The notes under the pieces were generated by a model, which worked only from the letters and a program-made list of their open reading frames with translations, was not told the origin of the DNA and did no database searches. Source: Escherichia coli (lineage in GTDB: Bacteria; Pseudomonadota; Gammaproteobacteria; Enterobacterales; Enterobacteriaceae). From it: a stretch of DNA of 64,000 bases. Both the position numbers and the translations under genes were made by a program. The stretch lies in NCBI RefSeq assembly GCF_003334815.1, contig NZ_QOWO01000017.1; one strand, written 5' to 3'. Of the stretch, positions 15,550-50,247 are shown piece after piece. Each line of letters starts with the position of its first letter. Position 1 is the stretch's first letter.

Positions 15550-16212
15550 ATGACCATTACGTCTCTGGATGGCTATCGCTGGCTGAAGAACGATATTATT
15601 CGCGGTAATTTTCAACCGGATGAAAAATTACGAATGAGTTTGCTGACATCGCGTTATGCACTTGGCGTTGGGCCGTTACGGGAAGCTCTTTCGCAACTGG
15701 TGGCGGAACGGCTGGTCACGGTGGTGAATCAAAAAGGGTATCGGGTGGCGTCTATGTCAGAGCAGGAGCTGCTCGATATTTTCGACGCCCGCGCCAATAT
15801 GGAAGCGATGTTAGTGAGTCTGGCGATTGCCCGCGGTGGCGATGAGTGGGAGGCAGACGTTCTCGCAAAAGCGCATCTGCTGAGTAAGCTTGAGGCCTGT
15901 GACGCCAGCGAGAAAATGCTTGATGAGTGGGATCTGCGTCATCAGGCGTTTCATACGGCAATTGTGGCGGGCTGTGGTTCTCACTATTTGCTGCAAATGC
16001 GTGAACGGTTGTTTGATCTGGCGGCGCGTTATCGATTTATCTGGCTGCGGCGAACGGTGCTTTCGGTGGAAATGCTGGAGGATAAACACGATCAGCACCA
16101 GACCCTGACTGCGGCGGTACTGGCGCGAGATACCGCGCGCGCCAGTGAGTTAATGCGCCAGCATTTACTGACGCCAATTCCCATTATCCAGCAGGCGATG
16201 GCTGGCAATTAA
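15550..16212 (+). CDS. csiR: GntR-family transcriptional repressor CsiR
   Basis: N-terminus MTITSLDGYRWLKNDIIRGNF, 220 aa. Confidence 0.85.
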   Translation: MTITSLDGYRWLKNDIIRGNFQPDEKLRMSLLTSRYALGVGPLREALSQLVAERLVTVVNQKGYRVASMSEQELLDIFDARANMEAMLVSLAIARGGDEWEADVLAKAHLLSKLEACDASEKMLDEWDLRHQAFHTAIVAGCGSHYLLQMRERLFDLAARYRFIWLRRTVLSVEMLEDKHDQHQTLTAAVLARDTARASELMRQHLLTPIPIIQQAMAGN

Positions 16213-16662
16213 CTACTCTTCCGGAATACGCAACACTTGCCCCGGATAAATTTTATCCGGGCTTTTTAGCATCGGTTTATTCGCTTCGAAGATTTTATTG
16301 TACAGATTAGCGTTACCGTAGACCTGTTTGGAAATGGCACTCAGAGTGTCGCCAGACTTAACGGTATAAAACTGGCTGGCAGTGGCTGGTGTCGCCGTTT
16401 TCACCTGATCATCGACACTGGCAATACCGGAAATATTCCCCACCGCAACAAGGATTTTCTCCTTCGCCTCCTGACTCAGGCCGTCACCAGTGACCGTCGC
16501 TTTGCCGTCGGCAATTTGAATATTCACTTTATCGGCATCCGGTATACCGGTTTTGTTCAGATGCTCCTGCACCTTCTTCGCCTGATCGTCTTTATCGTGC
16601 TGACCTGTAACCGCGTCCCAGAGTTTTTCTCCGGCATCTTTCACAAAATTGAACAGACCCAT
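16213..16662 (-). CDS. kbp: Potassium-binding protein Kbp (BON + LysM domains)
   Basis: [15 protein letters not shown]..., 149 aa; C-terminal LysM-like [30 protein letters not shown]. Confidence 0.85.
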
Positions 16663-17395: not shown

Positions 17396-17920
17396 ATGGC
17401 TTTGACAACCATTTCGCCGCATGATGCACAAGAATTAATCGCACGCGGCGCAAAGTTAATCGATATTCGTGATGCTGATGAATATCTTCGTGAACATATT
17501 CCTGAAGCAGATCTGGCTCCATTATCCGTGCTGGAACAGTCAGGTCTTCCGGCTAAATTACGTCACGAGCAAATTATATTCCACTGCCAGGCAGGTAAAC
17601 GCACCAGTAATAATGCCGATAAATTAGCAGCGATTGCCGCCCCCGCAGAAATCTTTTTACTCGAAGATGGGATTGATGGCTGGAAAAAAGCAGGATTGCC
17701 AGTAGCGGTAAATAAATCTCAACCCTTGCCGTTAATGCGCCAGGTGCAGATCGCTGCGGGTGGTTTAATATTAATCGGCGTTGTACTGGGTTATACCGTA
17801 AATAGCGGTTTCTTCTTATTAAGTGGCTTTGTTGGTGCCGGGTTACTGTTTGCAGGAATCAGCGGTTTTTGTGGAATGGCAAGGTTGTTAGATAAGATGC
17901 CGTGGAACCAACGAGCTTGA
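17396..17920 (+). CDS. ygaP: Rhodanese-domain inner-membrane sulfurtransferase
   Basis: 174 aa; rhodanese active-site Cys in FHCQAGKR; C-terminal TM segments. Confidence 0.85.
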
Positions 17921-17966
17921 GAAGCGACGCCGGACGCGCCCTAGCAGCGACATCCGGCCTCAGTAA

Positions 17967-18371
17967 TTAGATCAGGAAATCGTCGAGAGATTTACCTTCT
18001 GCCAGCGCCTGAGCAATTGGCTTCGGTGTACGGCCCTGACCGGTCCAGGTTTTAGTTTCACCGTTAACATCGGTGAATTTATATTTCGCCGGACGCGGCT
18101 GGCGTTTTTTACCAGCGCGTGGTGCAGCAGCAGAGCTATTACCCAATAACTCTTCCGGGTTAATTCCGTCAGCTTTCATCAGCTCCAGCCAGGTGCTAAT
18201 TTTTTCCTGGCGCTCTGCCAGTTCACGCTGCTGCTGTTCTTCTTCTTCACGTCTTTCTTTAGTGACAACCCTGAATTTTTCGAGCATTTCTTCAAGAACG
18301 TCAATGGAGAATTCGCGAGCCATCGCACGGAGGGTGCGAATGTTATTTAAACTTTGTAACATTACGGACAT
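17967..18371 (-). CDS. stpA: H-NS paralog, DNA-binding protein StpA
   Basis: 134 aa, [33 protein letters not shown]. Confidence 0.95.
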
Positions 18372-19039: not shown

Positions 19040-19489
19040 ATGTTCTCACCGCAGTCACGCTTGCGTCATGCAGTTGCAGATACGTTCGCGATGGTTGTTT
19101 ACTGTTCTGTCGTGAACATGTGTATTGAAGTTTTCCTCTCCGGAATGAGCTTCGAACAGTCTTTTTATTCCAGATTGGTAGCGATTCCGGTGAACATCTT
19201 AATTGCATGGCCATACGGTATGTACCGTGATCTGTTTATGCGCGCGGCACGCAAAGTTAGCCCGTCGGGCTGGATAAAAAATCTGGCGGATATCCTGGCT
19301 TATGTGACGTTCCAGTCACCGGTGTATGTGGCGATCTTGTTAGTGGTGGGCGCAGACTGGCATCAGATTATGGCGGCGGTCAGTTCAAACATCGTTGTTT
19401 CGATGTTGATGGGGGCGGTTTATGGCTACTTCCTCGATTATTGCCGCCGACTGTTTAAAGTCAGCCGTTACCAGCAGGTAAAAGCCTGA
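19040..19489 (+). CDS. alaE: L-alanine exporter
   Basis: 149 aa membrane protein; synteny. Confidence 0.85.
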
Positions 19490-19525
19490 CTCTTCTTTTC
19501 GCGACTGGCATCGCCAGTCGCGTCT

Positions 19526-19870
19526 TTAACTGGCTTCGCCAAATAAACCATTCAAATAACGTTCAAGCGCAACACGCGAACTAAAGCCATGCGGGATACC
19601 GTAATGCTCGTGTCGCTCGCCTGCTAAATAGAGCGGAAATTGCTGGTAATGATCGCAAGTTTTAATATCGGAAGCGGGTTCAGCCAGTGTCGAACTGCGT
19701 TCTTTTAATGTTGGATGAATTACCAGAGCGGTACGTCCCATTCGCGCTTCGCGATTAACATAGACATAATTTTCCCCACGGCGGTAACCATACGCTTTCT
19801 GGGTTACCACATCGACAGTAAAACCGACTTTTTCAAGTACGCGCGCCACCTCGTCTGGTCGTAAATACAT
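19526..19870 (-). CDS. ygaC: Uncharacterised protein YgaC
   Basis: 114 aa; synteny. Confidence 0.75.
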
Positions 19871-45282: not shown

Positions 45283-46820
<1,538 letters not shown>

Positions 46821-46830
46821 AGGCTGAAAC

Positions 46831-47985
<1,155 letters not shown>

Positions 47986-49289: not shown

Positions 49290-50247
49290 AGCACTACTGA
49301 ACGCGGGACGTCAGACGTTAATGCTGGAGTTGCAGGAAGCAAGCCGTTTACCGGAACGTCTGGGCGATGATTTTGTTCGCGCCGCCAATATCATCCTGCA
49401 CTGTGAAGGCAAAGTGGTGGTTTCGGGAATTGGCAAATCGGGCCACATTGGTAAGAAAATCGCCGCAACGCTTGCCAGTACCGGCACTCCGGCTTTTTTT
49501 GTCCATCCGGCAGAAGCGCTGCACGGCGATCTGGGGATGATCGAAAGCCGCGATGTGATGCTGTTTATCTCTTACTCCGGTGGCGCGAAGGAACTGGATC
49601 TGATTATTCCGCGTCTGGAAGATAAATCTATCGCGCTGCTGGCGATGACCGGCAAACCGACGTCACCGCTGGGCCTGGCGGCAAAAGCGGTGCTGGATAT
49701 CTCCGTAGAACGCGAAGCCTGCCCGATGCACCTTGCGCCGACCTCCAGCACCGTCAATACCCTGATGATGGGTGACGCGCTGGCGATGGCGGTCATGCAG
49801 GCGCGCGGATTTAATGAAGAAGATTTTGCCCGCTCCCACCCAGCCGGGGCACTGGGCGCTCGCTTGCTGAATAAAGTGCATCATCTGATGCGCCGTGACG
49901 ATGCCATCCCACAGGTGGCGTTAACCGCCAGCGTGATGGATGCGATGCTGGAACTCAGCCGCACCGGTCTGGGGCTGGTGGCGGTATGTGACGCTCAACA
50001 ACAGGTACAAGGCGTCTTTACCGACGGCGATTTACGTCGCTGGCTGGTTGGCGGCGGCGCACTCACCACGCCAGTCAATGAAGCGATGACGGTCGGCGGC
50101 ACCACGTTGCAATCGCAAAGTCGCGCCATCGACGCCAAAGAGATCCTGATGAAGCGCAAAATCACTGCCGCACCGGTGGTGGATGAAAACGGCAAACTCA
50201 CCGGCGCAATAAACCTGCAGGATTTCTATCAGGCCGGGATTATTTAA
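49282..50247 (+). CDS. gutQ: D-arabinose 5-phosphate isomerase (SIS + CBS domains)
   Basis: 321 aa. Confidence 0.9.

Follow-up and report, generated by a model that had tools for sequence, protein, structure and literature searches.

Mapped and probable transcript ends inside the partner gene at two convergent junctions of Escherichia coli, csiR/kbp and gutQ/norR

How do two transcripts that run toward each other come to an end when no spacer separates their genes? This question arises twice in the 64,000-nt stretch of Escherichia coli DNA analyzed here (the window; strain 504239, assembly GCF_003334815.1, contig NZ_QOWO01000017.1), at csiR/kbp and at gutQ/norR. A previous sequence-only reading had claimed that the csiR stop directly adjoins the kbp stop, that the gutQ and norR stops overlap, and that there is no room for terminators at either junction, implying read-through or termination inside the neighboring gene. 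The sequence, the ORF list and the annotation confirm the geometry of both pairs (Table 1). Read directly, csiR ends in GCT GGC AAT followed by TAA and kbp, on the opposite strand, in R I P E E followed by TAG, the two stops forming the hexamer TAACTA with a gap of 0 bp and no base in common. The gutQ gene ends in ATT ATT TAA (stop at 50245-50247, + strand) and norR in L G L K D, its stop being the reverse complement of TTA at 50244-50246 (- strand), which gives an overlap of 4 nt with 2 nt common to both stop codons. RefSeq places the gene ends at the same positions in strain 504239 and in MG1655, and the ORF lists agree. Over csiR-kbp and 50150-50800, moreover, no base of the window differs from E. 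coli K-12 MG1655. The DNA at the two junctions is core E. coli, being present in 5417 and 5426 of 5426 complete genomes.

Table 1. Features at the two convergent junctions (window coordinates)
Feature	Coordinates	Strand	Basis
csiR (glaR) stop, TAA	16210..16212	+	sequence, ORF list, RefSeq annotation
kbp (ygaU) stop, TAG (CTA on the + strand), adjoining the csiR stop	16213..16215	-	sequence, ORF list, RefSeq annotation
Intrinsic terminator of csiR, within the kbp CDS	16241..16267	+	terminator scan, fold, Term-seq, TRS
csiR 3′ UTR (55 nt), complementary to the final 18 codons of kbp	16213..16267	+	stop position and mapped 3′ end
3′-end hairpin of the kbp mRNA, within the csiR CDS	16116..16145	-	fold, Term-seq, TRS
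kbp 3′ UTR (97 nt), complementary to the final 32 codons of csiR	16116..16212	-	stop position and mapped ends
Region of Rho-dependent termination of read-through in the kbp direction, antisense to csiR	15650..15720, approximate centre ~15687 (MG1655 2,795,811)	-	Adams et al. Supplementary file 2
TTAA tetramer with the gutQ and norR stops	50244..50247	both	sequence, ORF list, annotation
Conserved gutQ-sense hairpin within norR codons	50261..50294	+	folds, synonymous diversity
Rho-dependent termination region in the gutQ direction, antisense to norR	50720..50800, approximate centre ~50757 (MG1655 2,831,288)	+	Adams et al. Supplementary file 2

The zero or negative gap at both pairs is statistically unremarkable. 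Of the eight convergent pairs annotated in the region, these two have no spacer and the others are separated by 36-158 bp. [quoted passage not shown] The gutQ/norR pair belongs to this four-tetramer class, and csiR/kbp lies outside it. In close relatives, the csiR-kbp spacing is 0, 3, 6 or 12 nt, so that the two genes remain tightly adjacent (0-12 nt) across Escherichia, Salmonella and Citrobacter. The gutQ-norR adjacency is kept in at least 10 genera. Of 12 other enterobacterial loci, 10 retain the 4-nt overlap, written TTAA, CTAA or CTAG; the Klebsiella overlap is 38 nt, reached by the “stop-codon mutation” route. Promoter-like sites occur near both junctions at or below the frequency expected by chance.

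To locate the ends of the csiR and kbp transcripts, we compared the sequence with published RNA-end data. The stretch downstream of csiR contains a stem-loop, CCCGGAUAA-AUU-UUAUCCGGG at 16241-16261, followed by a C and then by UUUUU (16263-16267). The stem is a perfect 9-bp helix with five G-C pairs closed by a 3-nt loop (-12.1 kcal/mol for the 21-nt stem-loop fold), and the element spans nucleotides 29-55 beyond the csiR stop. From the sequence alone, the 3′ end was predicted at 16264-16268. Term-seq of MG1655 (Adams et al. 2021) places it at 2,796,391 (+), that is window position 16267, the last U of the tract, and the independent TRS re-analysis places it at 2,796,387-396 (+). The element thus combines a stem-loop, an adjoining U-tract and a published in vivo 3′ end within that tract, as an intrinsic terminator does. 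The csiR 3′-end signal is seen in stationary-phase LB, which fits a starvation-induced operon. The csiR gene, which closes the glaH-lhgO-gabDTP-csiR cluster, thus has its mapped 3′ end at a classical terminator that most probably acts independently of Rho. Its stem is supplied by the self-complementary codons of the conserved LysM peptide P-D-K-I-Y-P-G of kbp, and its U-run by the Leu-Lys-Ser codons of the same gene.

On the kbp strand, the terminator region encodes 10 residues. Among 14 taxa in which csiR abuts kbp, the K-S-P-D-K codons display zero synonymous diversity and form the only such window among 126 five-codon windows, a constraint that suggests selection on post hoc evidence; only the 3′ arm and the U-run show clade-specific synonymous constraint. 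We also considered that the stem might be specific to the csiR neighborhood, and rejected this idea, given that the same stem is found in Serratia, Tatumella and other genera without a convergent csiR; the Serratia and Tatumella stems are equally stable (up to -12.1 kcal/mol). The tract counts four or five U in relatives, and the U-run is also present in “LKSP” lineages, in which the convergent neighbor lies 38-400 nt away. The presence of stem and U-run in lineages without an abutting csiR argues that the csiR element was exapted rather than purpose-built, its stem being for the most part a by-product of the PDKIYPG codons.

In the opposite direction, the kbp transcript ends at 2,796,240 (-), corresponding to window position 16116, in the same Term-seq study, with 23,751 reads in LB at OD 0.4 and 614,566 at OD 2.0. 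This end is present in three Term-seq conditions as well as in TRS, where the terminus at 2,796,236-244 (-) is classed as “Primary kbp.” It lies 4 nt beyond a hairpin whose stem, CUGGCGCG/CGCGCCAG (16138-16145 and 16120-16127; -16.7 kcal/mol), is not followed by a U-tract. The csiR and kbp mRNAs therefore overlap by 152 nt, positions 16116-16267 being transcribed on both strands. The kbp stem is kept in Escherichia, Salmonella and Citrobacter. Its covariation is no better than that of shuffled sequences (0.073 vs 0.074), the csiR codons beneath it show no synonymous constraint (p = 0.22), and the hairpin may be a chance GC-rich coding stretch that halts exonucleases. Rho scores were taken from Supplementary file 2 of Adams et al., which compares DirectRNA-seq with and without bicyclomycin in exponential LB, a condition in which the csiR operon is barely expressed. 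They reveal that kbp-direction read-through increases when Rho is inhibited, with a score of 6.6 (p = 1.3e-18) in the region antisense to csiR, and the kbp-sense RNA in this region is C-rich and G-poor (C/G 1.4-1.9 there and 1.3-1.9 downstream of kbp), a base composition compatible with rut-like RNA. The mapped end gives kbp a tail of 97 nt beyond its stop codon, and the hairpin just before this end is GC-rich and built from csiR Ala and Arg codons. We propose that RNA polymerase is most likely released further downstream by Rho, exonucleases then trimming the RNA back to the hairpin. In a search of Rfam 15 over 15850-16600, the sole match, with a mammalian lncRNA model, was a chance one below threshold (9.9 bits vs a gathering score of 55).

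Both mapped ends of this pair thus lie past the stop of their own gene and within the CDS of the partner, as had been anticipated, and the published Term-seq data already provide the 3′-end mapping suggested as a check: no end is mapped upstream of the stops, where it would contradict the claim. The statement that there is no room for terminators holds for the intergenic space, which is nil, but not for the terminators themselves, as csiR has an intrinsic one written in kbp codons.

At gutQ/norR, a strong hairpin, GACG-UU-UCGCCAGCC-GAUGCA-GGUUGGCGA-CGUC, begins 14 nt beyond the gutQ stop and overlies 11 norR residues (-20.6 kcal/mol for the 34 nt alone, -22.3 with flanking bases); folded in the norR sense, it is less stable by about 5 kcal/mol. 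Its tail reads GGUUUCC in E. coli, while other genera have CAUCUCC, CAGUUCC or CAGCGAC at this place, so that, devoid of a U-tract, the hairpin is not a canonical intrinsic terminator. It is kept in 13 enterobacterial taxa, across which the rare Arg codon CGG is invariant. In the norR stem codons, synonymous diversity (pi_syn) drops to 0.038 from a background value of 0.44 (permutation p <= 1e-5), whereas all 53 contiguous control windows have values of 0.20 or more. One compensatory change, C-G to U-A (in L091, where Val GTC to GTT pairs with Ala GCG to GCA), and one structure-preserving change, G.U to A-U (in E. coli RMDEC465), were found, the covariation signal being a weak one that consists of a single event and is equaled by 43 of 500 shuffles. 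With conservation beyond coding need and structure-preserving substitutions, the element has the features of a conserved structured RNA. We give even odds to the view that it is a selected dual-use element, encoding part of the DNA-binding helix-turn-helix of NorR and acting as a stem-loop that forms or stabilizes the 3′ end of the srl-gutQ mRNA; RNA-structure selection would then have frozen norR synonymous sites across the Enterobacteriaceae. The constraint could also reflect another overlapping signal.

Transcription in the gutQ direction is bicyclomycin-sensitive further downstream, with a Rho score of 5.3 (p = 2e-12) at the center of the region antisense to norR, and C/G rises to 1.8-2.2 at 50745-50945 (1.5-2.2 around this stretch), again a base composition compatible with rut-like RNA. 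No sharp 3′ end was seen for gutQ/norR in the LB or glucose datasets of the Term-seq of Adams et al. and TRS; TRS has no terminus at 2,830,800-859. The TERMITe supplements gave no matches, and Rfam 15 gave no match with E <= 1 over 49900-50700. Transcripts in the gutQ direction run into the constrained hairpin, whose most likely role is to fix or shield the 3′ end of the srl-gutQ mRNA, and Rho halts what transcription is left about 500 nt beyond. As for norR, its transcripts probably end by Rho or diffusely inside gutQ: the last 100 gutQ codons hold no low-diversity window that might end them, and the terminator-like matches at 50218-50190 (-) are weak and at chance frequency (4 found vs 3.4 expected). 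At this junction, the idea of read-through or termination inside the neighbor is supported by the Rho region antisense to norR and by catalogued overlapping transcription.

Taken together, these results indicate that both pairs are ordinary compact convergent junctions, with end signals inside the partner CDS and mRNAs that overlap tail to tail, a reading to which we give a probability of about 85%. As there is no spacer between the genes, each transcript-end signal has to lie within the partner CDS.

An overlap of this kind might nonetheless be regulatory, with polymerase collision or RNase III cleavage of the duplex giving reciprocal expression, as in a functional excludon. Both glaR-kbp and gutQ-norR are among the 165 convergent excludons of MG1655 listed by ExcludonFinder (NAR 2025), a pair being listed when its transcription overlaps in 50% or more of 58 transcriptomes, and for csiR/kbp the mapped ends prove the 152-nt complementary region. 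In stationary phase, the kbp signal exceeds that of csiR about 360-fold (614,566 vs 1,697 reads), a ratio at which stoichiometry would allow an antisense effect on csiR. Adjacency is also kept, in three genera for csiR-kbp and in at least 10 for gutQ-norR, but simple synteny predicts this as well, and the overlap needs no selected function because it is unavoidable with a zero spacer. In addition, csiR and kbp are both induced in stationary phase according to Term-seq, that is, co-expressed rather than mutually exclusive; we found no report of reciprocal expression, RNase III products or interference for either pair, and our literature search found no paper discussing either pair individually. 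We thus consider a functional excludon unlikely. Speculatively, the highly abundant kbp 3′ UTR, complementary to the final 97 nt of csiR, might dampen the CsiR/GlaR repressor when cells are in stationary phase or under osmotic stress, which, if true, would link K+/osmotic signaling to glutarate and GABA catabolism. That a selected structure has a measurable regulatory consequence at one or the other junction seems to us quite improbable.

Another mechanism, the Ju/Wang/Liu model of collision-driven bidirectional termination, would have converging polymerases pause at a hairpin and dislodge each other, with no need for Rho or a U-tract. It was put forward for hundreds of convergent pairs in E. 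coli whose terminators look unlike intrinsic ones, and would suit the kbp and gutQ hairpins, which are without U-tracts, the latter being located essentially at the gene boundary. However, the csiR and kbp ends use two hairpins about 120 nt apart, one of them a canonical intrinsic terminator, and the bicyclomycin-sensitive read-through in the kbp and gutQ directions implicates Rho. Moreover, norR polymerases reach the gutQ hairpin before the norR stop, such that halting them there would truncate the norR mRNA. Expression of norR and of the srl operon is also low under most conditions, and strongly expressed pairs are those that the model suits best. Collision is thus a very unlikely explanation. 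Finally, a mis-called stop or frame, with genes that do not touch, is refuted by sequence and conservation and has a negligible probability: long convergent overlaps in databases are often mis-annotations arising from 3′ extensions, but here the overlap is merely 0-4 nt, stop positions are independent of start-codon choice, both ORFs end where annotated, and the C-terminal peptides are kept in orthologues (RIPEE/RIPE in Kbp, QAGII/QAGIL in GutQ, RLGLK-x in NorR).

The reading of both pairs as compact junctions with end signals inside the partner leaves current understanding unchanged: embedded terminators, 4-nt overlaps and excludons are documented genome-wide, 4-nt overlaps and embedded terminators having been described in 2007, and both pairs are catalogued excludons. 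The arrangement is already known, and only its fine anatomy is new. That csiR, kbp and, most likely, gutQ transcripts end in their neighbors matters for genome annotation and engineering. Since these 3′ ends lie in neighboring genes, deleting, recoding or codon-optimizing the last 18 codons of kbp, the last 32 of csiR or the last 17 of norR would remove the terminator or 3′ stabilizer of the partner, and “clean” single-gene knockouts may alter partner expression. The csiR/kbp junction illustrates how a terminator may be assembled from codons that pre-existed for protein reasons, and the gutQ hairpin how RNA structure can freeze synonymous sites of an unrelated gene on the opposite strand.

Compared with the short convergent stop overlaps described by Lillo & Krakauer (2007), Rogozin (2002), Fukuda (2003) and Johnson & Chisholm (2004), gutQ/norR is alike in its TTAA, and its orthologues switch between TTAA, CTAA and CTAG while retaining the overlap, whereas csiR/kbp differs in its exact abutment and labile spacing. 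Rho-independent terminators embedded in a neighbor were reported for 23 genes (~20%) in the convergent overlaps of E. coli (Lillo & Krakauer 2007). The csiR element resembles them, with its stem and CUUUUU wholly within kbp, but differs in that the stem can be traced to a LysM motif whose codons are inherently palindromic. With respect to convergent excludons (the concept of Sesto et al. 2013; ExcludonFinder), 146 of whose 165 members have overlapping predicted terminators, both pairs are listed and the 3′ UTR overlap of glaR-kbp is demonstrated, but the defining outcome is mutually exclusive expression or RNase III processing, and csiR and kbp appear co-induced instead. The layout of kbp, with a Rho region about 430 nt downstream, is like that of Rho-dependent ends trimmed back to a stem-loop (Dar & Sorek 2018 and Wang et al. 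2019, as presented in Adams et al.), and the gutQ hairpin, with its Rho region about 460 nt downstream, has the same layout, trimming being putative in both. Lastly, overlapping bidirectional terminators (Ju et al. 2019; Wang et al. 2022) share with our junctions their overlapping ends and non-intrinsic hairpins, but they consist of one shared, intergenic, Rho-independent hairpin, whereas the csiR/kbp signals are intragenic, separate and accompanied by Rho-sensitive read-through, which places csiR/kbp outside this class.

At two convergent junctions of the window, the sequence-only reading had noted stop codons that abut or overlap, and from this had argued for transcriptional read-through or for termination inside the neighboring gene. 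The geometry is as described: csiR (glaR in current MG1655 nomenclature) and kbp (ygaU) face each other with a gap of 0 bp, as read from the sequence, and the stop codons of gutQ and norR overlap in a common TTAA (50244-50247). The same gene ends are annotated by RefSeq in two genomes. Across both junctions the window is E. coli chromosome without any difference from MG1655 (K-12), and given that the junction DNA is present in 5417 (csiR/kbp) and 5426 (gutQ/norR) of 5426 complete E. coli genomes, both belong to core E. coli DNA.

Coordinates of stop codons and RNA hairpins at the two junctions (window positions)
Feature	Position	Strand	Basis or remark
csiR stop TAA	16210-16212	+	sequence, ORF list
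kbp stop TAG, reads CTA on + strand	three bases right after csiR TAA	-	sequence, ORF list
kbp 3′-end hairpin CUGGCGCG...CGCGCCAG	16120-16145	-	fold -16.7 kcal/mol, no U-tract
csiR terminator stem-loop, perfect 9-bp stem, 3-nt loop	16241-16261	+	simple scan
gutQ stop TAA	50245-50247	+	sequence, ORF list
norR stop, complement of TTA	50244-50246	-	sequence, ORF list
gutQ-sense hairpin	50261-50294	+	folding; 14 nt beyond gutQ stop

Window positions convert to NC_000913.3 by adding 2,780,124 at csiR/kbp and 2,780,531 at gutQ/norR; the two offsets differ because the window carries two fewer tRNA-Arg copies between the junctions. Its segment 37667-38114 holds only two tandem tRNA-Arg(ACG) genes and a tRNA-Ser(GCU), where MG1655 and strain 504239, the best-matching public genome, have four tRNA-Arg copies (argQ, argZ, argY and argV) and serV, a contraction of the array by ~410 nt. 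In strain 504239, the annotation lists srlE, hycG and an alpha-amylase-like gene as pseudogenes with frameshifts (46275-47233 and 6201-8452 of its locus L001, 13325-14000 of L002). The alignment with MG1655 begins only at 7876. By collinearity with L001, positions 1-5641 are an apparent horizontally acquired island adjoining a tRNA-Ile gene, with the end of an Ag43/Cah autotransporter, DUF905, DUF932, an antirestriction protein, a JAB/RadC-like protein, a YeeU-CbtA toxin-antitoxin pair, DUF5983 and DUF4942.

Such zero-gap or overlapping stops are not unusual. The gap is ≤0 in two of the eight convergent pairs annotated in this region (36-158 bp in the others), and 58 convergent overlaps were counted in E. 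coli, with a modal overlap of 4 nt, two opposed stops fitting only in CTAA, TTAA, CTAG or TTAG (Lillo & Krakauer 2007). That study already asked where the terminators of such genes lie; for 23 genes (~20%), it located rho-independent ones within the coding sequence of the partner. In this region, the pairs ygaP/stpA (~17920-17967) and alaE/ygaC (~19489-19526) have spacers of 36-46 bp, yet their mapped 3′ ends extend to the partner's stop: the stpA end lies at 2,798,048 (-), classed as “primary stpA, antisense ygaP,” and the alaE TRS terminus at 2,799,650 (+) is the first base of the ygaC stop. Tail-to-tail transcript overlap is therefore a regional rule rather than a peculiarity of zero-gap pairs.

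At csiR/kbp, each gene ends inside the other. The csiR terminator begins 29 nt beyond the csiR stop, lies entirely within kbp, folds at -12.1 kcal/mol and is directly followed by C and UUUUU; from this sequence, ahead of the published data, the csiR 3′ end was predicted at 16264-16268. A plus-strand Term-seq end labeled “antisense ygaU,” at 2,796,391 and detected in stationary-phase LB (Adams et al. 2021), as expected of a starvation-induced operon, falls at 16267, the final U of the run, when placed by its printed flanking sequence (the convention, 3′ end at position 51, was verified on the sgrS row). By an independent method, a TRS terminus maps to 2,796,387-396 (+). The element thus has the sequence and the 3′ end of an intrinsic terminator, its Rho independence being predicted. 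In the segment 16263-16268, the fifth U of the run requires the kbp Leu codon CTA, the rarest Leu codon of E. coli; since close relatives (L004, L005, Salmonella and most Citrobacter) have CTG and four U only, csiR termination may be slightly better in K-12-type strains.

In the opposite direction, a very strong minus-strand Term-seq end labeled “antisense csiR” lies at 2,796,240 (23,751 reads at OD 0.4, 614,566 at OD 2.0, also positive in minimal medium; Adams et al. 2021), with a TRS terminus classed “Primary kbp” at 2,796,236-244 (-). This end, at 16116, is 97 nt beyond the kbp stop and 4 nt beyond a GC-rich hairpin, so that the csiR and kbp mRNAs overlap by 152 nt (16116-16267). A Rho termination region from the bicyclomycin experiment (2,795,811 (-), Rho score 6.6; Adams et al. 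2021) lies ~430 nt further into antisense csiR, where the RNA is C-rich and G-poor. In the simplest reading, the csiR transcript would end at its predicted intrinsic terminator, and kbp transcription would be released by Rho downstream, after which its RNA would be trimmed as far as the hairpin; Adams et al. (2021) describe this pattern as general. The 3′-end mapping that the sequence-only reading had asked for is thus already in print for this junction (Adams et al. 2021; TRS); its ends fit what had been expected, and termination within the neighbor is supported. The kbp hairpin is conserved (93% of cells paired), with no covariation above shuffles and a synonymous diversity of 0.33 vs. 0.40 (p = 0.22). 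The kbp 3′ UTR holds a second conserved hairpin, GCGUCAG-UAAAU-GCUGGCGC (~16153-16174, minus-strand RNA), within csiR codons R-Q-H-L-L-T-P, where codons CTG-ACG (residues 207-208) show zero synonymous diversity in 14 taxa.

Among 80 Kbp loci gathered from reference genomes, a csiR gene convergent to kbp is confined to Escherichia, Salmonella and Citrobacter, where the gap is never more than tiny (0, 3, 6 or 12 nt); abutment without any gap is thus a detail of E. coli, and the absence of a spacer is old. The terminator stem is a side effect of the conserved LysM peptide P-D-K-I-Y-P-G, whose codons include the self-complementary CCG-GAT...AT-CCG-G. Stems of equal stability occur in Serratia and Tatumella, which lack a csiR neighbor, and the U-run derives from the kbp Leu-Lys-Ser codons CTN-AAA-AGC, so the terminator is an exapted element. 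In the 14 taxa where csiR adjoins kbp, no synonymous diversity occurs in the K-S-P-D-K codons, which encode the 3′ arm and U-run; among 126 five-codon kbp windows this is the sole such window, and the codons vary normally (0.28-0.65) in the 66 other taxa. This post hoc comparison is suggestive of selection now maintaining the terminator.

At gutQ/norR, the published 3′-end datasets examined (LB/glucose) contain no mapped end within several hundred nucleotides, a likely reason being the very low expression of the srl operon and norR in these media. A Rho termination region (2,831,288 (+), score 5.3; Adams et al. 2021) falls at 50757, antisense to norR, and coincides with C-rich, G-poor RNA. The gutQ-sense hairpin has a folding energy of -20.6 kcal/mol by itself and -22.3 when flanking bases are included, and is followed only by GGUUUCC; its norR-sense counterpart is less stable by ~5 kcal/mol. 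It was found at all 12 junctions taken from other Enterobacteriaceae, 10 of which retain the 4-nt overlap (TTAA, CTAA or CTAG). The remaining two are natural examples of overlap growth via stop-codon loss or indel: in Klebsiella pneumoniae (L089, 3492-3529) norR lost its stop and extends 13 codons (…LGLKGSPPGRSSAG, then stop), giving 38 nt, and locus L091 overlaps by 8 nt (3459-3466). In both, the spacer from gutQ stop to hairpin is 7 nt shorter. In Yokenella regensburgei (L090, 1245-4977), no srl operon precedes gutQ, which follows an mltB-like gene on its own, and the 4-nt norR overlap and the hairpin are both kept; the junction is thus evolutionarily more stable than the gutQ-srl link.

The norR codons of the stem (D-V-A-N-L, R-L-A) have a synonymous diversity of 0.038 vs. 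0.44 over 97 background columns (permutation p ≤ 1e-5; lowest of 53 contiguous control windows, 0.20), and a rare Arg codon, CGG, is invariant. The sole stem changes seen keep pairing: in L091 a C-G pair has become U-A through compensatory changes at two synonymous third positions, and a divergent E. coli strain has A-U in place of G.U. Formal support from covariation is slight (one event, equaled by 43 of 500 shuffles), so that synonymous conservation carries most of the case for this hairpin. It matched no Rfam family, and no comparable norR element was found in the last 100 gutQ codons. We infer a stem-loop that would form or stabilize the 3′ end of the srl-gutQ mRNA, within norR helix-turn-helix codons.

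The phenomenon and both gene pairs are already in the literature: glaR-kbp and gutQ-norR are named among 165 MG1655 convergent excludons, 146 of which have overlapping predicted terminators (ExcludonFinder, NAR 2025), csiR and kbp looking co-induced rather than mutually exclusive. What this analysis adds is anatomy at the nucleotide level, the derivation of the csiR terminator from LysM codons, and evidence for constraint on norR synonymous sites by a gutQ-side hairpin across genera; these details are interesting, yet no new kind of system. The geometry is that of short convergent overlaps, a class described long ago (Lillo & Krakauer 2007). The kbp and gutQ arrangements resemble stem-loop-protected Rho-dependent ends and do not fit the “bidirectional terminators” of Ju, Wang and colleagues, which are intergenic, Rho-independent and shared.
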